Assembly: GCA_964187785.1 (NCBI GenBank)
Contig: OZ076409.1
Location: 29,574,001-29,638,000, forward strand
Direction of reading: 5' to 3'
DNA: 64,000 bases
From: Amphiscolops sp. MND2022
Taxonomy: Eukaryota
Shown: positions 6,952 through 63,356 of the stretch, piece after piece
Layout of the letters: each line of letters opens with the position of its first letter
Numbering within the stretch: the stretch's first letter is position 1
Notes under the pieces: generated by a model
The model's database searches: none
The model's input: only the letters and a program-made list of their open reading frames with translations
What the model was told of the DNA's origin: nothing
Translations under genes and position numbers: made by a program

Positions 6952-7209
6952 GGTGTATTATATGCTGTAATTTAAATGGTGTTCTATATGTGATTTGTAT
7001 CAGTGTCTATCCCTGGGACTGTTATGAAATTGTTGTGTATGTGATATATTAGGAGGTTCTGTAGTGTTCTAGAAAAGGTAAAAAGATGTGTCAAAAGATT
7101 GATAGAAAAGAAGTTAGGGTGTAAAATGTGTGCCAACTCAAGGAGTTGATCCAGACGGCTAGAACCGAGTCTACTAGCAGGAATTGTCGGATAGCACTTT
7201 AAAGAAAAA

Positions 7210-7473
7210 CCAACACGTATCGCACGTCTGCGGTTGGAATGAAGAAAAGACCAACACGAATCACCTTTGGCGGTGGTTGAAACGGAGAAATATTTTTACT
7301 AACATTTTACTAACACGGATCACTATAGGAGTGGTTGGAACGAAATATATTTGACCAACACGTATCACATCTTGTGTGGTTGGAGCGGAGTAGAAGTTAA
7401 CTGACAGGAATTACAGTGTGTACGTAGTCAGAACCATACCAACACGAATCAATTTTCTGAGAAAATTGGTTGG
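7210..7473. repeat. Array of five bulged hairpins in the family A 5' leader
   Basis: Consensus CCAAC-ACGNAT-[variable stem-loop]-GTTGG at about 7210, 7250, 7310, 7355 and 7439; inner stems differ in sequence but stay paired. Confidence 0.85.
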
Positions 7474-7611
7474 AACGAAAGATTAAAAGGTGTAGATTTT
7501 TCCGCGAGGAGGAGATACAGTGTGTCTGACAAAAAGTTGTCGAATTAGGAAGTTGAAAAAATGTGTACAATAAGAGGCGAGGCGTGCGTGAAAAGAAAGG
7601 CAAGTTTTCTT

Positions 7612-7621
7612 GATCACACCA
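7612..7621 (-). promoter_or_regulatory. Primer-binding site of family A (TGGTGTGATC)
   Basis: TGG starts 2 nt after the LTR-terminal CA. Identical at 40135-40144 and homologous to the family B PBS TGGTGCGACC. Cognate tRNA not assigned. Confidence 0.7.
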
Positions 7622-10259: not shown

Positions 10260-10526
10260 CAGAGCTGCAGTGTTAGGTCTTAATGGAAGACAACTTGATA
10301 GTGAAAAGTTAATTTCGTTGTGTCAGGATATAAACCAGATTGATGTTTTACAGTATTGAAAATGGTTGTGAATACAAATTAGATATAGGTTGATTACATT
10401 AATATTCAGAGTACAGAAATCTAATCTAGACATCAAGCCAAGAGGGTTGGGGGAGGTGAATGGTCGAATATAGATTACAGGTAAATGATCGAATATAATT
10501 TACAAGTATATCATCACAAGTAAATC
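10260..10526 (-). repeat. Part of the family B 3' LTR
   Basis: Direct repeat of 31383-31635, roughly 85% identical by eye. A possible PPT (AAGGAAAGAA, minus strand) near 10710-10720 suggests the LTR extends further. Confidence 0.7.
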
Positions 10527-11649
10527 ATTCGACCGGGTTTTGAAAAAATTATCATATCAAAGTAGGTTATCATGAGATGCGTAAGAGGTTTGTTCAAACT
10601 AGTTGTGGTGGTTTTATAGTTTCTAAGAGAGCTGATTTTAAGGTGTACATGATTGAGAGAAGTTGTAAGAATAGAAGTATATGTTTAAATTTTTCATCAA
10701 GTAGAATCTCACTATTCTTTCCTTACGTGAGCTTCGGGCGAATTTGCAACTTATATCGTGACTCCAGTTAAAAGGAACGGAGTTAGGTTGTAATGTTCAT
10801 TTTGAGTAGGAGTGAAAGTTAAAAAAGGTGTAAGGATTGGAACATTTATAATTTTTTACATGTTGTTTTGGGATTTTGTTATTTGATTTTCATGGATTTC
10901 CGTTCATTTTTTTTTCGTTTATCTTCCGTGGGGGTTTTAAAGTTTCTGAATGAGGAGGCATTGACTGACAAGTGAAGGCGTGGTGAAAAAAATGAAGAAC
11001 AGCGTTAAAAGAGCAAAAGTCAAAAAGGACGGCCTTGTTGACAAACATGAAGTTCCTTTTAAGACGGAGAATTCTTAACTATCATGTCAACGTAAGCGAA
11101 ATTCCTAAGCGTCTTTTGCGTGAAAACAGAAATAATTAAATTGAGAATCTTCTGCGACAAAAAAGCGGCATGAACAAAGTCAAAAACAAGTTCGAAAACA
11201 AGTCAAGAAGTAGTTATTATGTGTTCATAATTTGATCACATGAAGCGGGTAAAAGAGTGAAAAGGAACTTAGTCAATCAGGAGTTGCCATTAAAAACATC
11301 ATTCGATTCAAAATCAAACAAAGAGGTCAGTGACTTTTAAGGTGTGAACGAGGAGAATGAGAGGAAAGTTAAAAAGAGGGCTAGAACAGGAGTTATTGAA
11401 GTGTAATGTTAAGTTTTTTTAGAGAACGCGGTAAAATTTGGAGTTGCGGTTTGAAAAAAATGTTGTAAAAAGGAGTTAAATGTTTAAAAAATAGTAAAAG
11501 CATCACATGTACAGTTGGAGGAGATTGCAATGATCATGCTAAGAGAGAAAGTTATAATCGACACTCTGTAGAATCCAAATTAGAGAGGCATAAAAACGAA
11601 GTTTAGAAAGACAGAAACAAATGTTTTACTAATTATGTAAATAAACGTT

Positions 11650-18364: not shown

Positions 18365-21300
18365 GGTTTTTTATCATCAGAGGCAGGAGAGTTAGATTGA
18401 ATATCTTGATACGATTCAGTATCAGGGTTATTGAGAAGAGAGGGTGTTGAATGATATTGACGGAGACATGGAAAAATATTAGGTTCTGAGAAGTGGGTCT
18501 AAAAAAGAGATGATCAGTATGACTAACAAAAGAAAGAGATGATCGTTGGGCAAAGGCAACGTCATCACCAGAGGAGGTGGGAATATTGGTATTAGAGTTG
18601 AGAGATTCAGAAGAATGCGATTGAGCGTGGTGTCTTGGTAAAGAAGAATTAGTGCTTGCAAGTGAAGGAGAGGGCGAAGGAGAAAAGGAGGGTTGTTGCG
18701 CAGATTATATATATGACGAGGTTATCTACGGAAAGTAGATTCAGAAAGGGAATCCAAAAGATTATCTAGGGAAGAAGTGGTGTGTTTAGAAGCTGAATTG
18801 GAAGGAGGAAGTAGAGGATAGAGAAGAGAAAAGGTAGTAGAATCAACGTCATTTGAAGAAAATTTTTCACTCAAGGTTTCTATAGGTTCAAGAACAGGAA
18901 TTTTGAAATGTTTAGGAGGGGGAAGACATGGTCCAAGTTGAGAGTGGGAGCAAGATTTAGGAAATTGAAAAGAAAGATCAAATTGAGAGTGCCTACGGCG
19001 GCTTTTGATGGAGGTAGGAATAAAAGTTTTTTTTAGGAGTATGAGGTTTGTTAATATTGCGGAGGAGTATGGGGTCAAAATCACTGAGATCAGGGATATG
19101 ACTAAAGGAACGAGGCGGAGAATGAGTCGGAGTGATATCGAATGGATCTAATGGGAATTCAGTATCAGAAAGAGAAATAATTAAAGATTTTTGAGTTTGA
19201 AGAGCAGAAGGATTGAATTGTGGAGTTTGAGTAGGAGTTTAAGTTTGTGGGGTATGAGTAGGAGTAGTGTTAGGGGAAGGAGTGATAATGATTGGATTTA
19301 AAGGAGGACGATTGAATATACGAGAAGGGGTTTGAGAAGAGTTAATGGTCTCGGTAGAGACCGAAGAGCAAACAGAGGAGCTTGAGTTGGTAGAACTAGA
19401 AGATAGAGTGAGAGAAGAATCCAGGATGGAGGAGGATTCTGATAGTAAAAATGATGATCAATGGGGTAGCTGAAGAGGTTTATATTTTGGTATGTTTAGA
19501 GAAAAACAGAATTCGAAAGAGTTGATGCAAAAGAAGAAATTGTATTAGCCTTATGTGTATCAACTGTTCAGTCGAAAGTTTTAGAACAAAATGAACAGAA
19601 AGGAGGTGAGAAAATGGCTAATGCAATTAGAGGTGTCGAACGTCAAGCTTAATTTGGTGGCCAGACAGAAAACAATGACAGGTCATTGAGTAGACGGGAT
19701 ACAATGACAGGTCTGACAAGTGATCCAATTAACGAAAGGGAGAATAAGTTCAAGGTGGGAAACTAATATTAGGGTTTTGAAGTGTTGTAATTGTTAGAAG
19801 GAAGCGAGCGTAAATTATACGGAGAATGAGGTGCTCGAATATGAGTGGGTGAAGTTTGAGTATCGGGGGAAGGCTTAAGTTTACATCCAGGCGAGTCTGC
19901 AACAAGAGGGAATGTTTTCGGAAAGGAAGTGGAATGATAAATGGAATTATAGAGCATTTTGGAGTCGGAGTCAGTAGAGTTTGAAAAATCAACAAAGTTA
20001 TCGTCTGAAAGGGAGAATGAGGAAGGTTTTGGTACGTAGAAGGAAAATGAGCATTTGGTTTGGTTAGAGCAATAGGTTTAATAGAACTGTGCGATTGAAA
20101 TTGTTCAAAAGGTTTTTTATCATCAGAGGCAGGAGAGTTAGATTGAATATCTTGATACGATTCAGTATCAGGGTTATTGAGAAGAGAGGGTGTTGAATGA
20201 TATTGACGGAGACATGGAAAAATATTAGGTTCTGAGAAGTGGGTTTAAAAAAGAGATGATCAGTATGACTAACAAAAGAAAGAGATGATCGTTGGGCAAA
20301 GGCAACGTCATCACCAGAGGAGGTGGGAATATTGGTATTAGAGTTGAGAGATTCAGAAGAATGCGATTGAGCGTGGTGTCTTGGTAAAGAAGAATTAGTG
20401 CTTGCAAGTGAAGGAGAGGGCGAAGGAGAAAAGGAGGGTTGTTGCGCAGATTATATATATGACGAGGTTATCTACGGAAAGTAGATTCAGAAAGGGAATC
20501 CAAAAGACTATCTAGGGAAGAAGTGGTGTGTTTAGAAGCTGAATTGGAAGGAGGAAGTAGAGGATAGAGAAGAGAAAAGGTAGTAGAATCAACGTCATTT
20601 GAAGAAATTTTTTCACTCAAGGTTTCAATAGGTTCAAGAACAGGAATTTTGAAGTGTTTAGGAGGGGGAAGACATGGTCCAGGTTGAGAGTGGGAGCAAG
20701 ATTTAGGAAATTGAAAAGAAGGATCAAATTGAGAGTGCCTACGGCGGCTTTTGATGGAGGTAGGAATAAAAGGTTTTTTAGGAGTATGAGGTTTGTTAAT
20801 ATTGCGGAGGAGTATGGGGTCAATATCACTGAGATCAGGGATATGACTAAAAGAACGAGGCGGAGAATGAGTCGGAGTGATATCGAATGGATCTAATGGG
20901 AATTCAGTATCAGAAAGAGAAATAATTAAAGATTTTTGAGTTTGAAGAGCAGAAGGATTGAATTGTGGAGTTTGAGTAGGAGTTTAAGTTTGTGGGGTAT
21001 GAGTAGGGGTAGTGTTAGGGGAAGGAGTGATAATGATTGGATTTAAAGGAGGACGATTGAATATACGAGAAGGGGTTTGAGAAGAGTTAATGGTCTCGGT
21101 AGAGACCGAAGAGCAAACAGAGGAGCTTGAGTTGGTAGAACTAGAAGATAGAGTGAGAGAAGAATCCAGGATGGAGGAGGATTCTGATAGTAAAAATGAT
21201 GATCAATGGGGTAGCTGAAGAGGTTTATATTTTGGTATGTTTAGAGAAAAACAGAATTCGAAAGAGTTGATGCAAAAGATGAAATTGTATTAGCCTTATG

Positions 21301-24300
21301 TGTATCAACTGTTCAGTCGAAAGTTTTAGAACAAAATGAACAGAAAGGAGGTGCGAAAATGGCTAATGCAATTAGAGGTGTCGAACGTCAAGCCTAATTT
21401 GGTGGCCAGACAGAAAGCAATGACAGGTCATTGAGTAGACGGGATACAATGACAGGTCTGACAAGTGATCCAATTAACGAAAGGGAGAATAAGTTCAAGG
21501 TGGGAAACTAGTATTAGGTTTTGAAGTGTTGTAATTGTTAGAAGGAAGCGAGCGTAAATAATACGGAGAATGAGGTGCTCGAATATGAGTGGGTGAAGTT
21601 TGAGTATCGGGGGAAGGCTTAAGTTTACATCCAGGCGAGTCTGCAACAAGAGGGAATGTTTTTGGAAAGGAAGTGGAATGATAAATGGAATTATAGAGCA
21701 TTTTGGAGTCGGAGTCAGTAGAGTTTGAAAAATCATCAAAGTTATCGTCTGAAAGGGAGAATGAGGAAGGTTTTGGTACGTAGAAGGAAAATGAGCATTA
21801 GGTTTGGTTAGAGCAATGGGTTTAATAGAACTGTGCGATTGAATTATTCAAAAGGTTTTTTATCATCAGAGGCAGGAGAGTTAGATAGTATATCTTGATA
21901 CGATTCAGTATCAGGGTTATTGAGAAGAGAGGGTGTTGAATGATATTGACGAAGACAAGGAAAAATATTAGGTTCTGAGAAGTGGGTCTAGAAAAGAGAT
22001 GATCAGTATGACTAACAAAAGAAAGAGATGATCGTTGGGCAAAGGCAACGTCATCACCAGAGGAGGTGGGAATATTGGTATTAGAATTGAGAGATTCAGA
22101 AGAATGCGATTGAGCGTGGTGTCTTGGTAAAGAAGAATTAGTGCTTGCAAGTGAAGGAGAGGGCGAAGGAGAAAAGGAGGGTTGTTGCGCAGATTATATA
22201 TTTGACGAGGTTATCTACGGAAAGTAGATTCAGAAAGGGAATCCAAAAGATTATCTAGGGAAGAAGTGGTGTGTTTAGAAGCTGAATTGGAAGGAGGAAA
22301 TAGAGGATAGAGAAGAGAAAAGGTAGTAGAATCAACGTCATTTGAAGAAAATTTTTCACTCAAGGTTTCAATAGGTTCAAGAACAGGAATTTTGAAATGT
22401 TTAGGAGGGGGAAGACATGGTCCAGGTTGAGAGTGGGAGCAAGATTTAGGAAAATGAAAAGAAGGATCAAATTGAGAGTGCCTACGGCGGCTTTTGATGG
22501 AGGTAGGAATAAAAGGTTTTTTAGGAGTATGAGGTTTGTTAATATTGCGGAGGAGTATGGGGTCAATATCATTGAGATCAGGGATATGACTAAAGGAACG
22601 AGGCGGAGAATGAGTCGGAGTGATATTGAATGGATCTAATGGGAATTCAGCATCAGAAAGAGAAATAATTAAAGATTTTTGAGTTTGAAGAGCAGAATGA
22701 TTGAATTGCGGAGTTTGAGTAGGAGTTTAAGTTCGTGGGGTATGAGTAGTGGTAGTGTTAGGGGAAGGCGTGATAATGATTGGATTTAAAGGAGGACGAT
22801 TGAATATACGAGAAGGGGTTTGAGAAGAGTTAATGGTCTCGGTAGAGACCGAAGAGCAAACAGAGGAGCTTGAGTTGGTAGAACTAGAGTGAGAGAAGAA
22901 TCCAGGATGGAGGAGGATTCTGATAGTAAAAATGATGATCAATGGGGTAGCTGAAGAGGTTTATATTTTGGTATGTTTAGAGAAAAACAGAATTCGAAAG
23001 AGTTGATGCAAAAGATGAAATTGTATTACCCCTATGTGTATCAACTGTTCAGTCGAAAGTTTTAGAACAAATTGAACAGAAAGGAAGTGAGAAAATGGCT
23101 AATGCAATTAGAGGTGTCGAACGTCAAGCCTAATTTGGTGGCCAGACAGAAAACAATGACAGGTCATTGAGTAGACGGGATACAATGACAGGTCTGACAA
23201 GTGATCCAATTAACGAAAGGGAGAATAAGTTCAAGGTGGGAAACTAATATTAGGTTTTGAAGTGTTGTAATTGTTAGAAGGAAGCGAGCGTAAATAATAC
23301 GGAGAATGAGGTGCTCGAATATGAGTGGGTGAAGTTTGAGTATCGGGGGAAGGCTTAAGTTTACATCCAGGCGAGTCTGCAACAAGAGGGAATGTTTTTG
23401 GAAAGGAAGTGGAATGATAAATGGAATTATAGAGCATTTTGGAGTCGGAGTCAGTAGAGTTTGAAAAATCATCAAAGTTATCGTCTGAAAGGGAGAATGA
23501 GGAAGGTTTTGGTACGTAGAAGGAAAATGAGCATTTGGTTTGGTTAGAGCAATGGGTTTAATAGAACTGTGCGATTGAAATTATTCAAAAGGTTTTTTAT
23601 CATCAGAGGCAGGAGAGTTAGATAGTATATCTTGATACGATTCAGTATCAGGGTTATTGAGAAGAGAGGGTGTTGAATGATATTGACGAAGACATGGAAA
23701 AATATTAGGTTCTGAGAAGTGGGTCTAGAAAAGAGATGATCAGTATGACTAACAAAAGAAAGAGATGATCGTTGGGCAAAGGCAACGTCATCACCAGAGG
23801 AGGTGGGAATATTGGTATTAGAATTGAGAGATTCAGAAGAATGCGATTGAGCGTGGTGTCTTGGTAAAGAAGAATTAGTGCTTGCAAGTGAAGGAGAGGG
23901 CGAAGGAGAAAAGGAGGGTTGTTGCGCAGATTATATATTTGACGAGGTTATCTACGGAAAGTAGATTCAGAAAGGGAATCCAAAAGATTATCTAGGGAAG
24001 AAGTTGTGTGTTTAGAAGCTGAATTGGAAGGAGGAAATAGAGGATAGAGAAGAGAAAAGGTAGTAGAATCAACGTCATTTGAAGAAAATTTTTCACTCAA
24101 GGTTTCAATAGGTTCAAGAACAGGAATTTTGAAATGTTTAGGAGGGGGAAGACATGGTCCAGGTTGAGAGTGGGAGCAAGATTTAGGAAAATGAAAAGAA
24201 GGATCAAATTGAGAGTGCCTACGGCGGCTTTTGATGGAGGTAGGAATAAAAGGTTTTTTAGGAGTATGAGGTTTGTTAATATTGCGGAGGAGTATGGGGT

Positions 24301-25450
24301 CAATATCACTGAGATCAGGGATATGACTAAAGGAACGAGGCGGAGAATGAGTCGGAGTGATATTGAATGGATCTAATGGGAATTCAGCATCAGAAAGAGA
24401 AATAATTAAAGATTTTTGAGTTTGAAGAGCAGAATGATTGAATTGCGGAGTTTGAGTAGGAGTTTAAGTTCGTGGGGTATGAGTAGTGGTAGTGTTAGGG
24501 GAAGGAGTGATAATGATTGGATTTAAAGGAGGACGATTGAATATACGAGAAGGGGTTTGAGAAGAGTTAATGGTCTCGGTAGAGACCGAAGAGCAAACAG
24601 AGGAGCTTGAGTTGGTAGAACTAGAGTGAGAGAAGAATCCAGGATGGAGGAGGATTCTGATAGTAAAAATGATGATCAATGGGGTAGCTGAAGAGGTTTA
24701 TATTTTGGTATGTTTAGAGAAAAACAGAATTCGAAAGAGTTGATGCAAAAGATGAAATTGTATTACCCCTATGTGTATCAACTGTTCAGTCGAAAGTTTT
24801 AGAACAAATTGAACAGAAAGGAAGTGAGAAAATGGCTAATGCAATTAGAGGTGTCGAACGTCAAGCCTAATTTGGTGGCCAGACAGAAAACAATGACAGG
24901 TCATTGAGTAGACGGGATACAATGACAGGTCTGACAAGTGATCCAATTAACGAAAGGGAGAATAAGTTCAAGGTGGGAAACTAATATTAGGTTTTGAAGT
25001 GTTGTAATTGTTAGAAGGAAGCGAGCGTAAATTATACGGAGAATGAGGTGCTCGAATATGAGTGGGTGAAGTTTGAGTATCGGGGGAAGGCTTAAGTTTA
25101 CATCCAGGCGAGTCTGCAACAAGAGGGAATGTTTTTGGAAAGGAAGTGGAATGATAAATGGAATTATAGAGCATTTTGGAGTCGGAGTCAGTAGAGTTTG
25201 AAAAATCATCAAAGTTATCGTCTGAAAGGGAGAATGAGGAAGGTTTTGGTACGTAGAAGGAAAATGAGCATTTGGTTTGGTTAGAGCAATGGGTTTAATA
25301 GAACTGTGCGATTGAAATTATTCAAAAGGTTTTTTATCATCAGAGGCAGGCGAGTTAGATTGAATATCTTGATACGATTCAGTATCAGGGATATTAAGAA
25401 GAGAGAGTGTTGAATGATATTGACGGAGACATGGAAAAATATTAGGTTCT
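18365..25450. repeat. Tandem array of four 1.74-kb units plus a 120-bp partial unit, covering the integrase tail and env leader
   Basis: The same ORFs recur at 18479, 20225, 21968 and 23705 (periods 1746, 1743, 1737). Confidence 0.95.
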
Positions 25451-26560
25451 TTGGGATAATATGGTAAAATATGATTTCGATGAGTGTGAAATGTGGAACC
25501 ATCTTTGGCCATCAGTTCATAGGTGACGTCAGAGAGGTGCTGTAAAGTTTTTTTGGACCCAAACGAAAGGGTTTGCGTTTATGTGAGAAATTGACAGGTT
25601 TGAAAGTAGTGTGTATAACAAAGGTGTTAAGAGGGAGTTGTTTCAAAAGTATAGCTTTCTGAGTTTACTTTATTTGTAATATGGCGATGAACAGTGGAGT
25701 AAATTTCTAGCATTGCATGTTCAGCGGAGAGGAGCCATGGAGAAATAGGTTTGGTTATGGGTGAGTGGAAGAATGGGTTGAGGTCTTGATCACTATATTG
25801 TGTATGAGGAGTAAGAGAATTGGAATATGTTGCGATACAGTATTTAGAAGAGTCACGTGTTAGGTTAAGAGAAAAAGTTGAGGGGATACGAGGATGAGTA
25901 TGAAAATCTATTTGATTTGGAGAAAGTTTAAGTTGAGATAGAGGCGTGGTATTATGAGCATAAGCATACATTTGATTCTGAAATGACCAATTATCTGGAG
26001 GATTTTGTAAGAAAAGACGGTAAGAAGATTTCGATTTTGAACTTCGACTAAGCCATTTGTCCCAGGGGAGTATGGAGTTCGCGGAGAATTATTAATTTCA
26101 AATAGAGAACAAAGGTGAGTCATATCTTGGTAGATATATTCAGTACTCCGATCGTTGACGAGATATTGCGGTAGGCCAAATGAGTAAAGTTTGAATAGCA
26201 TATTTAGAGGAAATTTGAGGCGCAGGGTAAGTGACAACAAAATGACTGAAAGCGTCAATCATGACAAAAATGTAAGAATTTTTTTCAGACGAAGGAGAAA
26301 TATGTCATTGAGTGTCCATTGAAATGAGTTGCGTTTTCATAAAAAAGTAGTCGAGAGGAGATGTTCTTAGGTTTAATAGAAAAGTGTTTGTTTGATATTC
26401 AATACAATCATGAATGAAAATAGAAAACCATGAAGGTAGGTGAGGAATAAATAAAATTGGTTAAATGTTTTTCACCAGAATGACCATGTGAATGAGTTTT
26501 GCGAAAAGCAGCATAAACGAGTTTGAATGGTAAACATAAACGAGTTTGGTTAATAGAAGT
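25328..26560 (-). pseudogene. Integrase of family B (disrupted)
   Basis: HGHSGEK (zinc-finger region), YLVNDRSTEY, RTPYSPGTNGLVEVQNR (catalytic E region) and TFHTHRNHILPYYPKEP. Confidence 0.8.
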
Positions 26561-27269
26561 TTGAGTTTTGATAAAAATTTCAACGGAAATACGAGAATTT
26601 GGAGTGTAATACTGAATGAAATGTGAAATTGGGTCAATATGTAAATGTTGAAACTGTCAATATAGGTATAAAAAAAGAGTTAGCTTTAATAACTGGGGTT
26701 ACAAAGGAGGACTTTGTTTTAGTTTTAACCATGTATATACAGTGGAGAGGACAGGATCATCCTGTTGAGCTTGAAGGAGAGTGGGTATGATTAGAAAGGT
26801 GCCAGGGGAAGAAAGAATTTTTCAAAAGCTTTACAGTGAGCAAAGAAGGAAGAATCAAAAAATGGTAGTGAATTTGTAGATGTAGATTTAATAGGGTTTT
26901 GGATTATAGCATAAGACTTATTTGAGCTAGGAGAGCGTGGATAACAAGGGATGATTGAGGTTGTTGTGATTTTTGGTGAGGAAATAATTTAGAAACGGGA
27001 TCACCATATTCAAATAAATCAGTTTCATTCAGAAGAGGATTTTCTTGGAGTAGTGTTTTAACTTCATTCTTTCTCTGGGTTTTTTGTATTTATTCAAAAA
27101 GGATGAAACAATTTTAAGGGAGAATGAGTCTAGAGGTGTATAAGTAACAGTGTTAACTTTGTCTAAAATACGGAGTGTAAATTGATCATCACCATAATCA
27201 ATTGAGATTGGATGAGAATCATTTTTTTGAGTTGGTAAGACATCTTCACGTTTAACAAGGTAGTGGAAT

Positions 27270-28760
27270 TGTTTCAATGAATTAAAGTGTTTGGTTGAAT
27301 GAAGTCAAAATGAGGAGGAAGGATTTTTGTTGTAATTGACATAATTTATTTGTAATTTGAGAAAAATCTTGACTGAGCACATCAGCAACAGTTAAATTTG
27401 TTCCAGCTGTCTGAACAATTTGGAGGTTAGAGAATTTGGTTAATATCATTTGTGTTTTAAACCTCTTGGTGTTAAATTTCATTTACGGGTAAAGAGGAAA
27501 AGAATAGGATTGTGATCAGTGAAAACAATGATTGGAAACTTAGAGCCAATGATAAAAAATTCATATTGCGAGAGAGCAAAAGTTATAGCACAAAGTTTTC
27601 TATCATATGTAGAGAATTTTTGTTCTTGGGTGGTTAAAATGCGAGTATTATAAGATATAACTTGCATTTTGTTATCGGTATTGGTTTGAAAAAATATTGC
27701 TTCTAAACCAATTCAGGAAGGGTCAACGGTAAAATAAAATGGATAAGTGGTTTTGGGAATTGCAAGTTCAGCATCTTTTGAAAGAGAAATTTTATGGTCA
27801 ATAAAGAATTTGTCTAATTCTGGAGTATATTTAAAGGGAAAAAATGTCATGAAGGGAGTATAAAATTGTTTAGGAGAGATGTGGAGTTTGTTCATAAATT
27901 TGGAGAAGAAGTTCATTGATCCAATGAATCGCATTAGTTCAGTTTTAGAAGTGGGAGTTTTCAGTTTGTGGATACATCAACTTTAATTGAAATCGGTTTG
28001 ATAGTATTGTTGCCAATTTCATGTCCAAAAAATTTGACAGTGGGAGAGTATAAAAGGATTTTTCAGCATCTATTTTAAGATTACTGGAGCTACAGATTTG
28101 GTGTAATTGTTCAATTAAATCTAACATATGAGTTTTGGTGTGAGCAAGGAGGAGAATATCATCGATATAAACAAGTGCGAAGCCTCTATCATGAGTTTTT
28201 GGGAAAATCAGTACAATTTTTTGGTGAAAAAATTTTGGAGTCCTTCAAGGCCATAAAATCCTCAAATGAAAGCATAGTGTTTATCTCCAGAGGAGAAACT
28301 GGTAAAGAGAGATGATTTCTTCATCTAAAGGAGCGTGTGCATAAGCATACATTAGGTCTATTGCGGCTTTGAATTTTTTATTTGCACGAGCAAGTTGAGG
28401 AGCTAGAGGATCGATAGGCCAAGATTCAAAAGGCTGCTCAGTGTTAGAATTTATATGTCGAGCATCAAGAACTACTTTTATTGTATCTCCCATCAAGAAC
28501 TACTTTTATTATATCTCCATTGGGGATAATAATGAAAAGATTTAAAAAGGTGGTACCATAAATAGATTTGTCAGAAGGGGGAGCCAATTTGTCTAGTGAT
28601 ATTATGGTGTTCGAGTTCATCGAGTAACTTTTTAGGTTTATCTCTATAATGGTTTGGGACTTTAGTGGGTCGCTGAGTTTGAAGTTTGGCATTTATTTGG
28701 TTTGAGGCCAATTCTAAAAGGGGCTGCTATTTTACCAACATCATTACGATGAGTAGTATA
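27270..28760 (-). pseudogene. RT and RNase H of family B (disrupted)
   Basis: IKVVLDARHINS, ESWPIDPLAPQLARANKKF, VYIDDILL near 28165, FYFTVDPS, YDRKLCAITFAL, IVFTDHNPI, LTVADVLS. Confidence 0.85.
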
Positions 28761-29229
28761 ACAGTGTTGTTATTTAACCAAAATAGTGCAAAGTTTTAAA
28801 AATTCGTCATCAGTGACCTCATATTATTTTGAATTTGAATTTTTTGAGAAATTGTTGAACATCTGGGGAGTTTGGTAAAGGTAGAAGAGGATAATTTAAA
28901 GTTGGGAGGGTTGTAAATTGTTAATTTCAACATTAGATCGTTTGAGAGAAGAACGACGAACAGGAGGTTGCAGTTCGGAAAGATCAGGGTAGTATGTATG
29001 AAATATGGTGTGTATCAAGGTGTTGACATCATTAACTTTATATTGTGGTAGTTTAATATTAGTTGCGGGGACTTCAATATAAACGATGTATTCTGGTGAT
29101 AGGATAGCTGAGTGATGAATTGTATTTTGAATTATAACAGAACAATTGTTGGGTTCAGTTTTAGGATTTTGATAAACTTGGAGGAATTTAAGGGTGGAAA
29201 ATAAGTGAGGATTTCAAAATGAGTGACTG

Positions 29230-30700
29230 GGAAACCACGGAGGTCATAGAAGGAAGTGTTTTGATTCGCAGAGCTGCAATAAAAGGTAAGAGTTCATCTT
29301 TAGAAAATTGACAAAGAACGTTAGGACAAGCGTCTTGGAATTTAGAATCCCAAATGAGTTGGTAGTTATGTCTAAAAAATTTTCAAGAGAAACAAGAAGT
29401 ATAGTCGAATTTGTTCTTTAGTTTGAGTGTTTAGGGTGAGATTTTGAAAGAATTGACTTTGGAATTGTTGAATTTGAAGAAAAACTGTAACAAGCCAACC
29501 ATGGGGATTATTTTCAAGAGTACGGAGGTGTTCAATATTGGGGAGATCAAATTAGGTTTCCCTTGTAAGCAGTGCTCGTATAGCAGAAGGAGTAAAAAGA
29601 TGTTGAGGTAGGAGATTATTCTTCAGCGAAAGGTTTTTGAGAAAAGTTGTGAAGTTATGACCGATGGGAATGTAGATATTGGAGGGGTAAATGTTTTTAC
29701 GATAGATATTAGTAGGGTGGAGAGGGGAGGTGAAAGGTAGAGAAAGGGAATTTCATCAGGAGTAGAAGTTATAGAATGGTTGTCAATGTAATAAAGGTAG
29801 GAGTCGTGATGTTCACGAAAAAGAGGGATAGTATAGATATTTTCAGTGTATGTTTCAAAACAAAAAGAGACAGTGGAGTTATGGATGAGAATTTTGAGAA
29901 ATTTTGTTAAAATGTGACCGTTTTTGCGAGACAGGCGAGAACGGAAGGGATCAACTTCAACTGGGAGAGGAATGAGAAGAAAAGGAGGCGTAGTAACCAT
30001 TTTGAATGGCGATGAGGGTGAAAAAATAATGAAATACAATTGAGAAGAGTATCAGGATAAATAGGTGGTTCTGGAGAATGCGGGGGATTGTTGAAAAGAT
30101 AGAGTTTATGGCAAAAATCGGGATAATAGGGGAGTAGTTTACGGTTGAAAAAAAAACGAAAAAAAAATAAAAGAAATGAGCAAGAGTTGAAAAAGCGAAT
30201 TTAGAGGGTTGGGGTTTAGAAAAATTAGAAACATAAAGGAGAAGATGATTAAAATTAGGAGCAGTTTACTAGAAGGAAAAAAGATAAAACGGAGCAAGTG
30301 TAAAATTGTGTGGAGTGTTGTCAAGAGAGAAGGTGAAAAATATAGGAGAAATGATTAAAGACGATAGGGAGGTATGAGTAATAGTTGTGGAGGGTGAAAA
30401 ATATTGAAAGAGACTAGAGTTAGAGAAACGAGAAGGAAATGGGGAATTGGTAGGGAGATGTGGGAGGTTGAAAAGTAAAAGAGGTTTTGGAAAAGGAGAG
30501 TGAATTAGAAAAAATAAGTTTGAGTGAAAAGTGTGGTGTTTATTTTATTATTAAGGAGCATGAGAAAAACAAGCATAGCAAAAATGAATGGGACAAAATG
30601 AATAATTGTAGGAAGGCTTTCGGTGGGGAACATTGATTAAAGAGCGAAAAACTATCGAGGAAGGAAATCAATCATGAATTTGTCGACGACGAGAAGAACA
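29230..30700 (-). pseudogene. ORF0 homologue in family B
   Basis: FETYTENIYTIPLFREHHDSYLYYI, LENNPHGW, SQFFQNLTLN, RHNYQLIW and DELLPFI match family A ORF0. Hydrophobic stretches at 30140-30520. Confidence 0.7.
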
Positions 30701-30814
30701 TTTTCAAGTAGGTGACAAAAATACAATATAATCATTAGAGCACAGACGAAGTCATTGAGTTTAAACATTTCAAATTGAGGTTACAAAGTTATTAAAAAAG
30801 AAGTTAAAAAAGGT

Positions 30815-31215
30815 GTACCGACAAAAATTCGAATCAAGAGGTTAGCACTAGAAAGTACCGACAAAAGTCGAACCAACTTGATTGTATGAAAAAGTTGATG
30901 TACCAGCACGTAGCTGAATCACTTCAATGGTGATTAGTATGGAAGAAATGGTTGTACCAGCTTCAAGGCTGAATCACTTTTTTGTGATAAGTACAGAAGA
31001 AAGGGTTGTACAAGCTTCAAGGCTGAATCAATTTTTGTAGTTGGTACAGAAGAATTGTTTTTACCGACTACGAGGTCGAACCACCTTGAATGGTTAGTAC
31101 TGAAAAATTGATTAACCGACTCTATGTCGAATCACTTTTGTTTGTGATTAGTACAGAAATAATGAAGAACTGTGTACCGATGTGAAAAATATCTAATCAC
31201 TTTTGTGATTAGTAC
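30815..31215. repeat. Array of about eight three-way-junction-like motifs in the family B 5' leader
   Basis: GTAC-C-[P2]-G-[P3]-A-GTAC units; P2 is GAC/GTC, AGC/GCT or GAT/ATC and P3 is AATCAC/GTGATT or AACCA/TGGTT. Confidence 0.85.
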
Positions 31216-31272
31216 AGAAAGAAGAAAAGTGTGTATCGAGTAGAAAAAAAAGAAGGAAAGAAAAAAGGTTGT

Positions 31273-31282
31273 GGTCGCACCA
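31273..31282 (-). promoter_or_regulatory. Primer-binding site of family B (TGGTGCGACC)
   Basis: Same position and similar sequence as the family A PBS; lies between the LTR and the leader array. Confidence 0.6.
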
Positions 31283-31284
31283 GT

Positions 31285-31635
31285 TAAAGTACTTTTTGTT
31301 GGGTTGGTTTGGAAGTTATCAGATTTTAGATATTTTAGATTTTAGAATATTTCAAAGGGACAGTACTTTGAGGAGACGCTTACAGAGCTGCAGTGTTAGG
31401 TCTTAAGGGAAGACAACGAGTTAATTTCGTTGTGTCAGGATAAAAACCAGATTGATGCTTTGCAGTATTGAGTATAGTATTGAATACAAATTAGGCATAG
31501 CTTGATTACATTAGTATTCAGAGTGCATAAATCTAATCTAGAAATCAACCAAAGAGGAGGAGGGTGAATGATCGAATATAGATTATAGATGAATGATCGA
31601 AAATAATTTACAAGTATATCATCACAAGTAAATCA
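31285..31635 (-). repeat. Family B 5' LTR (outer end probably truncated)
   Basis: 31383-31635 repeats 10260-10526. 31285-31360 matches an orphan copy at 48752-48813. The PBS follows. Confidence 0.65.
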
Positions 31636-39022: not shown

Positions 39023-40756
39023 TGTGTGGATCGTCCTTATCTTGAACCCAAACGGAAGTTCATTTCGTTCATCATAATTTTCGCATTTTCTTCCGGTATG
39101 GAATTTCAATGGAAATTTCTTTGGGTATATCTTCAAACTTTATTCAAAACAGTCCTACTTCCTCGAGTTTTGAAGGGAATGATGCTAAATAAACTACCCA
39201 AAGCATGCAAACCATGGAACGTAAGGTTTGTAAGCTTTTGCTAGTCATACAAAAGTGAATAAAAACGAAAAAAAAAATCATTTTGTCAGGAGTCCTTTAC
39301 ATCCTATACAGCGATATTATATATTAACGGAAACAACTAACAAAAGCGCCGAAGATATTCAAGGGGAGACCTTCGATCGCAATTGACCAAAGTTTTTAAT
39401 CCTGAGAGCCGGAGGTCTGATGATGATCAGAAAGAAGAGTCAACAAGAGTCATCGTTTCCAAATATATGCGAGTCAGCATTTTTATCGAAGTTGCGTTTT
39501 TCTTCATCATTTTTAGGCCCCATCTCATGGATGCCACAAAACACTTCCCTTTTTTAGTAATTCATTAGTTTAAGAAATCCAGCATACCATTCCTCGCAGC
39601 ATACTTCAAGATGTCTAATCTTAACTCTTGTATCTTTCTGTTACAACCCTGTACCAAGCATTGTGATACCATGATACATGACCTCAAAAATTTCTTGTGG
39701 AACTGTCTAGAACTTTTACTCCTTGACAAATTGACATATGACATCTTGAAGTTCACTTGATCTAGTTAGCGAACGCTCTTACCATCCAGTTATTATTACA
39801 CACTAATCTATTTAATAAAGACTCTCAGTAATTTGAAATGGCAAATAATTGATTTAGCGATGCTACTTCATCTAGATAGTTATTGATGACAGTTACATTT
39901 TTGATGTATGTCATGGTAAATATCTACTCTGGGTTTACTTATATCTCTCAATAGATAGGTTTTCTCTCAGTTCATAATTAGTGAAAGAAATAAAAAGGTA
40001 TACCCTAAAGACTTAGCTAAGCATCGAAAGAGATCTCTAATAGTATCAATAGCGGCATCTGCTTAGAATGAATGTAACTTATGGAAACATCTAAACATAC
40101 TTCTACAGATAACACTTAATCTAAGCAGTACAATTGGTGTGATCAAGAAAACATTCTACTTGCCTTTCTTTTCACGCACGCCTCGCCTCTTATTGTACAC
40201 AATTTTTCAACTTCCTAATTCGACAACGTTTTGTCAGACACACTGTATCTTCTCCTCGTGGAAAAATCTACACCTTTTAATCTTTCGTTCCAACCAATTT
40301 TCTTAGAAAATTGATTCGTGTTGGTATGGTTCTGACTACGTACACACTGTAATTCCTGTCAGTTAACTTCTACTCCGCTCCAACCACACAAGATGTGATA
40401 CGTGTTGGTCAAATATATTTCGTTCCAACCACTCCTATAGTGATCCGTGTTAGTAAAAATATTTCTCCGTTTCAACCACCGCCAAAGGTGATTCGTGTTG
40501 GTCTTTTCTTCATTCCAACCGCAGACGTGCGATACGTGTTGGTTTTTCTTTAAAGTGCTATCCCACGATTCCTGCTAGTAGACTCGGTTCTAGCCGTCTG
40601 GATCAACTCCTTGAGTTGGCACACATTTTACACCCTAACTTCTTTTCTATCAATCTTTTGACACATCTTTTTACCATTTCTACAACACTACAGAACCTCC
40701 TAATATATCACATACATAACACTTTTATAACAATCCCAGGGATAGACACTGATACA
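39023..40756 (+). mobile_element. Family A copy 2: 5' LTR (39023-40132), PBS (40135-40144) and leader with hairpin array (40290-40552), truncated at 40756
   Basis: Reverse complement of about 6996-8732, with the same LINE flank as the outer LTR of copy 1. Confidence 0.85.
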
Positions 40757-40794: not shown

Positions 40795-41163
40795 ATGGCA
40801 CCCAAAATCAGTGGAAAAGCTGTGAAGAAGGCTGGCAAAGCCCAGAAGAAGCCCACTACTGACAAGAAGAAGAAAAAGAAGAAGCCAGAAACTTACTCTC
40901 TCTACATCTACAAAGTGCTGAAGCAGGTTCACCCCGAGACTGGAATCAGCTCCAAGGCTATGTCAATCATGAACAGCTTCGTGAACGACGTTTTCGAGCG
41001 AATTGCCGGTGAAGCGTCCAGACTGGCCCACTACAACAAGCGAGCAACCATCTCTAGCCGTGAGATCCAAACCGCTGTGCGATTGCTGTTGCCCGGTGAG
41101 CTGGCCAAGCACGCTGTGAGTGAAGGAACCAAGGCTGTCACCAAGTACACAAGCTCCAACTAA
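40795..41163 (+). CDS. H2B: Histone H2B, intact 122-aa intronless ORF
   Basis: Canonical H2B fold: [85 protein letters not shown]. Confidence 0.97.
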
Positions 41164-42309: not shown

Positions 42310-45300
42310 TCATTTCCCTCCAGAATTCTTCTTCTTGATCGTTATCTTCTTTACAAACTTACTCTCTGTCGGAGGAAAGGGAATTTCACCAATTACACGA
42401 GGAACAGAAAGAGTTGCCGTAGCCAAATCTGGCATCCGATCAGCAGGGACAGAAGTGCTTGGCCCAGCCCGAATGGGAGACAATTTGGCAAACTTCCCAG
42501 ACTTTCCAACTGTAGGACTGACAGTGGTACTCGCTGACATGGGGACTGAATCAATACAAGTCCATAACCGCTCTTCTTCTGTGATGGTGCAAGTGTATCG
42601 GGAATCGAGCCGATTAAACAATCGCAGACGTCGTCCCGAACAGCTGGAAGTGACGTCCCTCACATAGAAACCAGGGTCCTCGAGCAAAGCCTTTCCTCTC
42701 CCGAGCAAGGAGAAGATTGGTGCAATAGTACGAGGATTGTTGGAGAGCCCGGTCACATTTGGAAAACCTGACAGGGAAGATTGTACGGTATGTACGCAAG
42801 ATTCAAAATCGTCCAAATTGGAAGACAATTCAGGCAAAACAATGGAGAATGTGGGAGGAACTTTACTAACATCCATCGAACTAAGGCAGCATAGCTTGAA
42901 GACAGTATTGAGGTGTTCTCGGCAATGAAGTTCGTAAAACCCCGACAAGAAAGAGACCCAGTCGTCATCATAACTGACATCATTGCTGCGGAATTTCTCG
43001 ACGAACGAGCAGTACTCACTAAGAACAAGAGGTTTAGCGGAGTTAGGTATCCACTGGTACCGAGACAAATAGTCGCATTCTTGTTCTTACTCGTATCGGT
43101 AATTTGCTTCCTCGCCATGACGGATGACACTTTCGTCAAAGATTGACATACCTCGTATGAGCTTTGACTTTCGAATGCTGTGTTTCAAAAGGAGACTGCA
43201 GAAGTGTTTGTAGAAACAGACCGCTTGCTCTACAAAATGTGTGGGAGTGGGGATCTCTGCTCTTGCCACGAGGTTTGCAAATTCTTTGTCTCTGAGGGAT
43301 TCAGTAGGCCCCTTTAAAGAAGGTCAGCTGATGTCAAATCGATGGACAAGAACTTATCCCAGTTAGAAATGTCCCCGAGGAAGGAAGTAGGGAGGATAGA
43401 TTTCAATTGACTGTAAACAAAAGTAGCATAGGCACTGTACTGCCGAAAACCGTCACCAGCAACTCCGAAGACATCTTTGAAAGCAGATTGATCTGAACAC
43501 AACCCAAATATACCATTTGGAAAGCGACTAAGAAAGAAGTGAAACAGAAGAGAACTAACAATGCAGTAGGACATTCCGTATTAAGAAAAGTTTCGCGGGA
43601 TAAGCTTTGTCCTTGTAAAAGGTCTCATCGAGACTTTTTGGCTGAAAGAACCAACGATTGAGCAAAAAGGAAGGAAAGGTAGAAAATGAACCAATAAATC
43701 GGAAATCACCTCTTTCATATGATATTTGAAGGCTTTAGACCAATCAGCGAGACGGAGGTGAGCGATCACATTGTTCCAGTTCATATACAACTGCTCAAGT
43801 AGGATGATGGAACTTTGAAGGTCGAAATCAAAATTACTGGTCGCCTGAAACAAAAAGCAAAATGCAAAGAAACACAAATTGATGCCGTTAAGGAAGCATA
43901 AAATAACAAATTATGATGCAGTATACCGAATTCAGAACTCAGCATAATAAAGTATACAGCATGCAGCATAGATAATACAGATTATGCGGTTTCCATGAGA
44001 AAGCTGCATAGAAGAAAACATTATGCGGTTTTCAGGAGAAAACAGCATAGAAGAGAACAATATGCGGTTTTCAGGAGAAAACAGCATAGAAGAAACCATA
44101 ATGCGGTTTTCAGGAGAAAACAGCATAGAAGAAAACATTATGCGGTTTTCTGGAGAAAACAGCATAGAAGAAATCAGTATGCGGTTTCCGGGAGAAAACA
44201 GCATAGAAGAAACCATTATGCGGTTTTCAGGAGAAAGCAGCATAGAAGAAACCATTATGTGGTTTTCAAGAGAAAACAGAATAGAAGAGAACATTATGCG
44301 TTTTTCAGAAGGAAACAGCATAAAAGAGTCGATCATACTGTTTTCAGAGGAAAACAGTATAAAGAGACGATCATGCGGTTTTTCGGGAAAACAGCATGAT
44401 GTTAAAGAGGAATGAACGACAAAGCGCGGAGTGACTATTATACGAGGATATGCCGTTTTGTTAAACAGCATATGATCTAAATAGTATGGGTCAAAATACT
44501 TCAAGAATTGGAATCTACAACGAAAATTCAGAACGAAAGCGTCGTTATGAATCAACATCATAAAAGTAAAATTACCTTGCGCAACTCAGGGAGATTAGAG
44601 AGCCAATCTGAGTCGAGAGCGGAATGGAGTTTCATAAGAAGGAATTTGATAACACTGCGAAAATCATTTCGGTCTAAGATTTTGATGGTGGGTCCAGCCA
44701 GTGTCTTATAAAGTTCCTCATAACTGAAGTTAGGGACAATGCAAATTTCGGGTGACTGTTGAAGTTCTGTAACCATAGCCTTGGGAGAACCGAGCGTCGA
44801 ACCCGAGCAAGGAATAAATCCTTGGGTTTTTGGAAGAAGTGGCTAGGAACGAGGAAACAATTTCCAAAGTTTTCCGTGCTGTTAATAAGCTGGTGGGATA
44901 CTTGCAAAGGGGAAGGCGATTAAACACGTTTCCGGTCCAGAACGTTACGACCACAATGGTGTGATGATTTGAAACTTGGAGCTGGATTGAACAAGGCCCA
45001 GACATGTCTGCTGACGAAATGGAATATGATACCAGCTCACGAAACATGTAGGTCAAAATTCCCGGTAACAACAAAACTTACAAACAACTTTTAAAACAAT
45101 GATAAGAAAGTGGAAAAGAGAGCTACTCACAAAGATCCGTTCAGGATTCCAATTTTATTGTGGGACTTTGGCTGGGCCGCGAACCTCAAGTCCAAGCTTG
45201 GTCCAGAGAGAAATTAGGGAGCTCAGAGTCCCACCATTTTGTAGCGCTGACAGTAAAATGCGGATTTGGGAACAAACCACAGTTGAAGGATCGAACTCAG

Positions 45301-58341: not shown

Positions 58342-61300
58342 CTAAAGGCTTGTTGATTTGCGTTGCATGAATTTTAAGAGTGCCGGTTTTGCATGTAACT
58401 CGTGAACGAGGAAGTTGTTGTATGTTTTTGGTACAGGCGCTTCTCTAAGACTATATCTGGTAATATTGTTTCGCGTGATTGGTTCGGGCGTTTCAGGTGA
58501 GGATGTGGTTGGTCCCACATCATTGTTGATCGGCAAATTCATTTCTTCAGGCAGACTTTTAGATTCAGTTTGTTCAGTGTTGTTTGTGTGAGCGGTATTT
58601 CGTAATGGCTCGGGTAGAGGTGGATCCTCGTACATTTGTTCTTGTTCATACAAGATGATACCATGTTGCACGTCGGTCATGTCAGATTGTTTGTCAGGGT
58701 GAACTATTTCGGGCAGAGCGTTCGGCAGAGGTGGAACTTCGTGCATTTGTTCGCGTTCGTAATAGATTGTTCCGTGTTCTTTATCGACGCTCTCAAACTC
58801 ATTAGCGCCGATTTCAGTTGTGTTTTCAGCCGGAGTTAGTATATCGGGTGCAGGCAAATTTTCATTAAATATGGTTTGGTCGTCGGTAGCGTTTGGATCA
58901 CTATAGTGTTTTTTCGCTTTTCGCATCGTCATCTATGTCGTCAATGGGGTCGTGTGGTACGAATGGGCGAAGCGGCATTCTATGTACACACTGTGTTCGG
59001 AATGTACCCACCTTTCTAATGATGTAGTTTGAATGTGATAGGACTTTGACTACCTTGTAGGGTTCTTCCCATTTAAAGGAGTTGAAGGGAATTTTGTCAG
59101 ATTGTGTTGTAATTTTAGGATTCAATAGAAAGGCAAAGTCGTTTACTTTCAGTGGCGATGCTTGCGCTTTTCGGTCGTAGTAGGCTTTGTATTTATGAAA
59201 AGCCTTGATGATGTTGGCGTGCGTCTCTTTGAACTTTGTATTCAGGTTGTCCACTAATGTTTTTGTGTCAACAGTGTTTCGTGGTAGATTCAGAGGGTTG
59301 CTAAATTTCAGGTCTAGAGCGTTGTATGGCACTCGGCCGTGGAAGACTTCAGTTGGAGAACATTTTAAGGACTGATGATAAGTTGTGTTATGCGCCACAA
59401 CTGCAAGGTTAACATATCGGTCGCACCGGGGACGGTCCGCAGAGACGTTTATTTTCAGAATCTGTTTTAAACGTTGGTGTGACCTTTCGACCATCCCAAT
59501 AGATTGGGCGTGTTTGATTGTCGCGTGTGAGACCTTGATTCCGGCTCTGTTCATTAATTCGGTTATGACTTGTGAAGTGAAATCAGAGCCTTTATCGGTG
59601 ATAATATGCTTTGGTACGTTTGCATGTTTTGTGAAAATGTCTAGCAGAGCATCGACGACGGACTTCGTATCAGGTTTGCGGATCGGGATAGCAAACAGAT
59701 AACGCGAAAAATAATCACAAGCCGTCAGGATGTGTGAGTACCCATTAGATCGCGGTAACTCACCTACGAGATCAATTTCAAGGATGTCTTCAGGACCGTT
59801 GCAGGGGTCGTATATTGGTTCAAGTGGGGGTACTAGAGTATTAGGTTTCGCAGTTAGGTTTCGCTTTGATACATTCTTGACAATTGTTTACAAACTCTTG
59901 CACTTTTTCAGTTAGGTTTGGGATGTTGTACCGTTTCCTTAGTTCACTTAGCATTTTGGAAGCGCCAGGGTGTCCCTGTATGGGATCGCCATGCATCGTC
60001 CTGATTATGGCTTCAGTAGTTTCTGGAGGAACTACAATTTGTCGGTAAGCTAGGTGTCCAACATTGTCAAAAAACTGTCTGTACAAGACGTTGTTAACCA
60101 CTTCAAGTCTTTTACGGTTCTTGAACAATTTTTGAAAAAAGGTACTTTCAAAGTTTACGTGCTTAGGGGGTGTTTCTTGGACAGTAAGGACCCTGATTAC
60201 ACGTTGGACGTCACTACTTTCGCCTTGAGCCTTAACAATTTCTGAAACCCCCGAAGGGCATACCTGATTTACCATGTGGACCTGGTCCCGTCGGTGGAAT
60301 CGGGTGAAGAGAAGAGTTGGGTCAGAGGGCATTACGAATGGTTGTATCTGGGACCTGATCCCATCGATACGTCTGTTGTATTGGTCGTCACTTTCACGGT
60401 GTTGTTGCGGGAACATCGTCATCAGTGTTTGCATTGTCTGGTTCGATGACGTGGCGACATCTGGTACATCATGATCGTCAGGGATGTACTCCTCCTCGTC
60501 ATCGTCTTGTTTGGGCGTCTTGGATGCCAGGTCGATTTCCACCTTGAAGACCGGTATCTCATCGTGTAACTTGAGGTGGATCCTGTCTGCTGGGTTGATA
60601 TCGATCCTCGATAGGTAATCGGCGGCTGGGTTCTCGACGCCGGGGACGTGGGCTAAGACGAAGTCGAATTGGAGTGCTTGGTCGCAGTAGTTCCACAACT
60701 TGGGTGGTATCGGCTTTGACTGGAAGAATCTTGTGAGGGCTTTGTTGTCTGTCATGACAATGGTTGGTTTCTTCACACCCCACAAGATATGAGCAAACTC
60801 GTCGAAGGCGAAGTGCATAGCCAGGAACTCTTTCGCGTACATCGTGAGTGACATCTGGCCCTCAGTGAACCTTTGTGAACCAAACGCCACTGGTGCATAT
60901 GACTTCGTTGGACCCTCGCTGGTTTCAGTGTAATCTTCTATCAAGAGGACATAACCGGCTGCGTGCTCACTAGCGTCGCACATGATCACCAACTGCTTGT
61001 CAGGAAACGGTAACCTCAATGACATCTCAGCAGCGTTTGCCAAATTTTCGTTGATGTCAAATATTGCGCCTCTGTGGACTTGCGTGAGTTGAAATTTTAC
61101 GTCCTTTTGCAACAACTTGTATAGTGGCACTAACTTCTCGGCTAGTCTCGGTATGTACTGCCGGTAGAATTGTACAAATCCAATGTATCGCTGAAGTGAT
61201 TTCACTGACGTCGGCGGTTTGATGTTTTTCAGGAAGTCGTCAATTTTCTTCTCGATGGGCCCGATGCCTTTACTGGTAATGCTCCTGCCAAGAAATTCGA

Positions 61301-63297: not shown

Positions 63298-63356
63298 AGT
63301 TTGTTGTCGTTGATTTAGTAGCGCACTTTTGTATGATTGTGGAGGATGACGTGGCT

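Follow-up and report, generated by a model that had tools for sequence, protein, structure and literature searches.

The packaging signal (psi) lies in the 5′ region of retroviral RNA, and the available text of one overview describes the minimal packaging sequences of LTR retrotransposons as largely unclear (PMC8096270). As far as the accessible parts of the sources go, HIV-1 psi is a tandem three-way junction in which the first nucleocapsid (NC) sites need a labile helix (PMC7395439). The NC of MoMuLV, which has a single knuckle, binds to a UCUG linker that adjoins a helix, and dimerisation exposes further UCUGs (PMC7599994). Ty1 and Ty3 also have 5′ cis-signals; those of Ty3 are spread over both UTRs and pol, with no modular array described in the available portion of the source (PMC8096270). 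At the DNA level, the accessible extracts of a Drosophila study report tandem repeats in the 5′ UTRs of 19 of 49 LTR elements, acting through DNA-binding proteins, and repeat arrays of polymorphic number in gypsy, ZAM, Idefix, Tirant and accord (PMC8872304); the words hairpin and secondary structure are absent from its text.

The array described here lies in the leader of a decayed Ty3/gypsy element (family B) on the minus strand of a 64 kb window, the whole stretch of DNA that was analysed. It resembles the HIV-1 core encapsidation signal in its place in the 5′ leader behind the primer-binding site (PBS), its putative three-way junctions, its many candidate NC sites and a weak G-holding helix, which is predicted here (PMC7395439 and PMC7599994, in their available parts). 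The HIV-1 signal, however, is one unique fold with two nested junctions, whereas the array consists of near-identical, predicted modules in tandem and in variable number in a Ty3/gypsy element. With MoMuLV psi it shares the single CCHC knuckle, repeated UCUG beside helices and self-complementary segments; MoMuLV differs in having three distinct hairpins and loop kissing (PMC7599994, in part). In the array, every repeated module has UCUG at its foot, with the G predicted to be paired, and a sister family (family A) lacks UCUG at that place. The Drosophila arrays are likewise 5′ UTR repeats of varying number, but they are described, in the extracts available, as protein-binding sites in DNA, whereas the units found here covary as folded strands (PMC8872304). 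In the literature searched, which took in few subscription journals, no tandem array of covarying junction modules was found in the leader of an LTR retrotransposon. The first-pass annotation had proposed an undescribed class, in agreement with an Rfam search of the window (three matches, all below the gathering score, E 0.41-4) and of three young leaders (no matches up to E = 1). Thus, the array is likely a new form of 5′-leader cis-signal, and analogy with the retroviral systems suggests that its function is likely packaging.

The array had been placed at 30815-31215, just downstream of the PBS, and both its extent and its position hold: it begins 67 nt downstream of a real tRNA-Met PBS. A covariance model built from 42 units of other loci, the strand of which follows from its construction, has exactly eight matches in the window, all within 30813-31219, and a search of the 64 kb up to E = 1 returns these units and nothing else (Table 1). 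On the sense (minus) strand, each unit starts with GTAC and a single U, followed by a hairpin of 5-6 bp (P3), another of 4 bp (P2) and a second GTAC, the two GTAC segments making up the closing helix P1. The variants of P2 and P3 occur as initially listed, but the C and the G that had been taken as unpaired pair with each other, which makes P2 4 bp long; at the junction, where the helices abut, 0/0/1 bases are unpaired. The linkers are A-rich, as had been stated, on the strand shown; on the sense strand they are U/C-rich. The window copy is old and decayed, with 1-4 non-Watson-Crick pairs per unit, mostly private, in the seven units parsed. Because of this decay, a strict structural descriptor recovered only one of the eight units, among 28 rows over the window that were mostly AT-rich chance matches.

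Table 1. Coordinates of the features in the 64 kb window
Feature	Position	Strand	Remarks
Unit 1	31174..31215	-	P2 type CGAT/ATCG, first base changed; model E 1.5e-9
Unit 2	31113..31154	-	P2 CGAC/GTCG; model E 9.6e-9
Unit 3	31061..31100	-	P3 AACCA/TGGTT, P2 CGAC/GTCG; model E 4.9e-9
Unit 4	31008..31047	-	P2 CAGC type, decayed; model E 5e-4
Unit 5	30954..30994	-	P2 CAGC/GCTG; model E 5.5e-11; predicted three-way junction when folded alone
Unit 6	30900..30940	-	P2 CAGC/GCTG; model E 5.9e-10
Unit 7	30855..30887	-	Short loops, inherited U-G in P3, junction base lost here; model E 1.7e-4
Unit 8	30815..30848	-	Inherited G-U in P1, C-A in P3; model E 1.2e-3
5′ LTR, family B Ty3/gypsy	31285..31621	-	About 340 bp; copy similarity ends at 31621; 3′ LTR of another copy matches 31621-31285
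PBS	31272..31282	-	11-nt complement of the 3′ end of genomic tRNA-Met(CAU), L035
Small hydrophobic ORF 1	30652..30768	-	38 codons here; 45-48 in intact families
Small hydrophobic ORF 2	30505..30633	-	37 codons in intact families
Broken gag start (N-terminal domain)	29200..30000	-	About 2.9 kb including the rest of gag missing at about 29200
Broken pol region, same element	25450..29198	-	
Probable truncated 3′ LTR	10260..10527	-	84% identical to 5′ LTR
Family A PBS and leader array	40135..40622	+	Bulged-stem modules; terminal three-way junction (putative) 40555-40622
Second family A PBS and leader array	7130..7621	-	Terminal junction (putative) 7130-7197

Across the genome, the exact unit pattern has 1,231 matches (608 + 623) and the reversed control pattern none. 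A relaxed parser, allowing up to three mismatches and any purine or pyrimidine at variable sites without imposing pairing, found 554 units in the fetched loci once an isolated three-mismatch unit at L064 had been removed. With re-fetched loci counted twice, 531 of these have a PBS-like site upstream of them at a distance of up to 900 nt; the other 23 appear mostly clustered. The first unit is mostly 20-100 nt from the PBS-like site. Arrays contain about 3-9 units, mostly 3-8, and the number differs between copies; loci with 9-16 units have duplicated leaders. Strong model matches likewise form short clusters at leaders (41 sources, up to 10 kb each). A metagenome scan gave four isolated matches without arrays, two of them weak (E 0.002-0.005), which were judged to be chance.

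Intact relatives of the window element carry a PF03732 gag followed by RVT_1, RT_RNaseH, H2C2 and rve in this order, and the domain order, LTRs and tRNA PBS of these relatives place them in Ty3/gypsy (Metaviridae); the closest solved match of the polyprotein and its RT is Ty3 (E 2e-44). In an RT tree of 14 rows, the window piece groups with families B-E (support 100/99), B-E are sister to family A (99/99 for the pair), and families with short leaders (about 45% identity) fall outside. The two branches of the array clade share 74% RT identity. LTR pairs are 99.5-99.7% identical in one A and one D copy and thus indicate recent activity. A protein search gave 189 matches, of which those at 45% identity or above all lack a protein name and the named ones reach about 30% or less; no relative of the clade's RT was found among viral contigs. 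Related families match the tRNA-Met of the family B PBS over 17 nt. The first, stricter tRNA pattern had no matches; a looser one matched 16 places, and the five fetched comprised one tRNA-Met, one tRNA-Val and three without a gene. A cluster of five tRNA-Val genes at L031 (G000:C2 56572494-56575514) includes one that ends in TGGTCGCA, like tRNA-Met, and could therefore match the 11-nt PBS too.

Several other features of these elements and of the window were recorded. After pol, an env-like ORF matches PF24664, the Monjiviricetes fusion glycoprotein (E about 2e-27; L214 3630-6020, L218 3367-5001), and further ORFs of 300-550 aa downstream of it have no Pfam match. Gag of the array clade starts with a conserved 270-aa N-terminal domain and an S/T/P-rich linker (L075 6100-6909, L202 1190-1999, window about 30000-29200); this extension has no Pfam match, was not seen in the short-leader sisters and gave a low-confidence fold prediction (pLDDT 41). 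Conserved small hydrophobic ORFs, two or three in number and 37-83 aa long, occupy the interval from the PBS region to gag (window 30768-30139, minus strand; also L075, L205, L213, L202, L195 and L200), both in the array clade and in its short-leader sisters. These ORFs, and not the array, recall sORF1 and sORF2 of the MDG1 group as presented in the available part of a preprint; MDG1 has no env, whereas the array clade has the PF24664 glycoprotein, and the likeness is one of description (bioRxiv 10.1101/2025.03.14.642691). About four tandem copies of a 1,743-bp block, 97-99% identical, lie inside the family B element (18365-25450). An intronless ORF of 122 aa for a histone (PF00125, read as H2B-like; 40795-41163, plus strand) lies between a truncated family A leader, which it follows directly, and the C-terminal fragment of an integrase. 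The Ty3/gypsy pol at 58342-63381 (minus strand) is unrelated and distant, with 27% RT identity to the array clade, and a 39-bp tandem repeat of about 11 copies (43981-44397) lies in open frames on both strands. Elsewhere in the genome, L086 (6827-9999) holds ORFs for DNA polymerase B, endonuclease VII and C2H2 fingers, read as Polinton-like.

Covariation within the array had been taken as a sign of selection on structure, and selection on base pairing is supported by pair-keeping double changes in P2 and P3, by stems that vary less than their surroundings and by the junction of family A described below. Among 359 distinct family B units, P2 pairs 2, 3 and 4 are Watson-Crick in 321, 323 and 314, against 176, 185 and 267 expected from shuffling, and P3 pair 3 is so in 263 against 210; none of 1000 shuffles reached these values. 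P2 occurs as CGAC/GTCG (111), CAGC/GCTG (99), CGAT/ATCG (16), CAAC/GTTG (9) and CAGT/ACTG (2), and the mixed form CAGC/GTCG was met twice. The junction base is U in 345 of the 359 units, while the loops are 2 to 16 nt and 3 to 13 nt long with free letters. Columns with a shared variant, defined as one present in at least three of 21 family B copies, number 9/156 in stems, 11/70 in loops and 16/56 in linkers (p = 1.2e-4; nine of the 30 family B loci, being duplicates, partial copies or copies in which no PBS was found, were left out). The dedicated covariation test on 42 little-decayed units was divided: 95.2% of cells pair and 37 cells hold double changes against 13.5 in shuffles, but the two measures least fooled by relatedness were not significant, with five covarying pairs against 4.2 (reached in 178/500 shuffles) and nine pair types against 10.7 (497/500). 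Since the copies are related, family B offers no more than about five double changes that count as independent; nearly all double changes in this family are transitions. In an RNAalifold consensus of 42 units, P1 and P3 were retained and P1 could be extended by a U-G pair; P2 was lost because its fourth pair was misaligned. The whole window array folds with a z-score of -4.9 on the sense and -4.5 on the antisense strand (40 shuffles). Taken together, the array is real and under selection and is probably an RNA-level element.

The proposal of a three-way junction stands in part. The two abutting hairpins are well founded, but whether P1 closes the unit in family B varies with the energy parameters, and the case for closure comes from family A. 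In family B, P1 is an invariant, self-complementary GTAC/GTAC without covariation (320-334 of 359 paired, no better than shuffles), and three of the five P1 pairs never vary in the 42 units. Because GTAC is both palindromic and invariant, a junction is indistinguishable from pairing between neighbouring units in this family. The Turner 2004 and Langdon 2018 parameters prefer the between-neighbour register (0.67-1.00 in families C and D), whereas Turner 1999 and Andronescu 2007 give a mixture of within-unit and between-neighbour registers; the link between units 7 and 8 prefers neighbour pairing with all four sets (0.92-0.96). Folded singly, window unit 5 and one family C unit are predicted to form junctions, and window units 3 and 6 only the two hairpins. 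During transcription, within-unit closure would form first.

The best evidence for a three-way junction comes from the sequences of family A. This family has the same PBS and an array of a different module, of which 32 leaders yielded 100 distinct examples (L123 and L141 were excluded as not belonging). The module is a bulged stem that combines GTT and a 5 bp stem with an upper helix that is free to vary and a 6-nt bulge that is conserved. The module pattern has 8,935 genomic matches against 7 for the control. Lower stems are of the types CCAAC/GTTGG, CTGAC/GTCAG and GCAAC/GTTGC, and the upper helices are many and unrelated. Shared variants are found in 5/86 stem columns against 17/83 in loops and linkers (p = 0.006), and in 2/30 columns of the bulge. 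The array ends in a putative junction of the family B type, with P1, one U, P3 ATCC/GGAT and P2 CAAC/GTTG (1,566 genomic matches, none for the control). Its P1 is GTGC/GCAC in 28 of 30 distinct copies, and is thus non-palindromic and without a neighbour to pair with. It differs from P1 of family B by a compensated pair, the G-U intermediate of which is inherited in unit 8 of family B. The P3 arm of this terminal junction holds a circularly permuted bulged module, in which the bulge strand comes first and the GTT strand second. The base before GTT is complementary to bulge position 5 in 93 of 100 forward and all 30 permuted modules; these sequences suggest a possible short pseudoknot, although the complementarity reflects one event and is confounded with module type.

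A few G-T pairs had been read as a better fit to the antisense strand, a hint that the larger sample weakens, with private mismatches symmetric between strands and inherited ones leaning to sense. Over the 13 core pairs there are 157 G-U against 117 A-C on the sense strand, and 85 against 81 once two positions carrying inherited variants are set aside, a symmetry that neutral decay predicts. Among inherited variants, P3 pair 3 has 54 U-G against 30 C-A (the U-G is inherited in unit 7 of family B and in the second unit of families C and D), P1 pair 3 has 17-18 G-U against 6 A-C, and pair 2 of the family A upper helix has 14 G-U against 2 of the opposite kind. The antisense strand is favoured instead by the inherited C-A in unit 8 of family B and by upper pair 1 of family A, with 10 C-A against 4 U-G owing to the module type that carries an extra A. 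In folding energy, the whole array does not distinguish the two strands. From these counts, sense RNA is more likely the functional strand.

The reading that we prefer is a multivalent packaging signal bound by the element's own Gag or nucleocapsid, which by analogy with psi we give about an even chance of being correct. The array lies in the 5′ region of the element, downstream of the PBS, and the cognate Gag of families A, C and D has a single CCHC zinc knuckle, as do array-less sisters. A UUCUG is conserved at the 5′ foot of the family B units: of 359 units, 248 have a UCUG whose last base is the first base of P1, and 294 have Y-Y-Y-G there. Conservation extends over the unpaired 5′ flank (T in 332 and 326 and C in 294 of 359), while the 3′ flank is free from +2. 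The motif argument is weakened in that UCUG is a short word in a pyrimidine-rich strand, and family A modules have none at their foot. On full-length sense RNA, each unit would close as a three-way junction through a weak helix of 4-5 bp; the G of UCUG would be the first base of this helix, and opening of the helix would let a single CCHC knuckle bind. With several units, an RNA would take up more than one Gag molecule and thereby nucleate a particle. Being self-complementary, GUAC could also pair with a strand from another unit or from a second genome, an exchange that could couple packaging with dimerisation. In family A, a different module would serve this purpose, and the difference would help each family to select its own RNA. 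In the array-less sister families, which share the PBS and have a CCHC Gag, L194-L201 gave no model match and the three leaders examined show no such repeats; packaging therefore does not require the array in every member of the group. The same PBS also occurs in an element (L114/L146/L210) with a single short hairpin-like stretch in the first 60 nt behind it and no array, and no RT was found within 10 kb of this element. No amplified gag-less derivative keeping the array was found, in that the deletion junction of the window copy was not fully spanned by any other of the 40 matches listed.

Other functions are less probable, the least unlikely being translational. The array might recruit ribosomes or a pyrimidine-tract-binding factor, or set shunting, and so allow translation of a leader with small ORFs ahead of gag. 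The leader measures about 1.0-1.2 kb and has two to three of these conserved ORFs before gag, the linkers are rich in U and C, and AUG is scarce before the first small ORF in five families (0, 1, 0, 1 and 2 against 2.8, 3.5, 2.2, 7.9 and 6.4 shuffled; p = 0.04, 0.11, 0.07, <0.002 and 0.02). However, AUG depletion indicates only a scanned or translated 5′ UTR, array-less sister families have small ORFs before gag too, and the distance from the end of the array is 45-240 nt to the first small ORF and 600-750 nt to gag. In addition, known IRESs are single large folds and are not known to be variable-number repeats.

It is also rather doubtful that the array serves export or localisation, like a CTE, an RRE or the musD transport element, with repeated sites for a host export factor or an accessory protein. 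Such a role would suit the modular sites and the conservation of the unpaired family A bulge, as well as the extra ORFs after env and the 270-aa Gag extension, but elements of the CTE/RRE type are usually internal or near the 3′ end, the array has no Rfam match, and the ORFs of the element include no accessory protein found to belong to an RNA-binding family.

We consider it improbable that the units are hidden splice or spliced-leader acceptors whose use is gated by folding. Nearly every family B unit contains UACUAAY, which we take to be branch-point-like, and CAGC-type units hold UUCAG about 20 nt downstream of it; CUGAC-type modules of family A have a similar spacing, and in family C (L075, L078) the AG that most closely precedes the first small ORF falls in the last CAGC unit. 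SL trans-splicing has been reported in an acoel, according to the part of the source available (PMC9911081). Nevertheless, CAG is missing from about half of the family B units (CGAC type) and from the CCAAC modules of family A, and it arises automatically as the partner of CTG. Families D and F have another AG after the array, and the LTRs and leaders of seven copies contain no GTRAG donor.

Just as improbable is an enhancer or insulator array acting as DNA, of the kind found in 5′ UTRs of the Drosophila elements gypsy, ZAM and Idefix. The core letters are strongly conserved across subfamilies, as such an array would have them; yet the inverted half-sites are separated by anything from 2 to 16 nt, changes preserve pairing rather than sequence, G-U pairs are inherited, and the circularly permuted module makes sense only for a folded strand.

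We hold it very improbable that the units are neutral by-products, palindromes generated by template switching in reverse transcription and multiplied by slippage: young copies do show tandem unit duplications (4 to 8 units) and nearly all family B double changes are transitions, but the junction geometry, the unpaired junction U, the unpaired 5′ flank and the family A bulge are all conserved, arrays persist in both branches of the clade always at the same place, and the lower frequency of shared variants in stems than in loops and linkers largely refutes this account.

The hammerhead ribozyme has a three-way junction with a conserved unpaired catalytic core; the array, with 0/0/1 unpaired junction bases, no catalytic core and no Rfam match, does not fit a hammerhead or another self-cleaving ribozyme, and a cut behind the PBS would sever the template.

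Returning to the packaging reading, it may be, as a tentative extension, that in this enveloped gypsy clade the packaging signal is made of interchangeable RNA aptamer modules that were multiplied in tandem, swapped for a second fold and nested in permuted form, a tunable code by which each family would select its genome. Evidence for a three-dimensional RNA motif seldom comes, as it does here, from a circularly permuted module that is found nested in nature. A 40-nt module repeated thousands of times with free loops and with varied stems and numbers marks what matters in it and makes the packaging question directly testable with short RNAs. Two sister families with two modules and one common junction represent a natural experiment in how RNA-protein specificity diverges.
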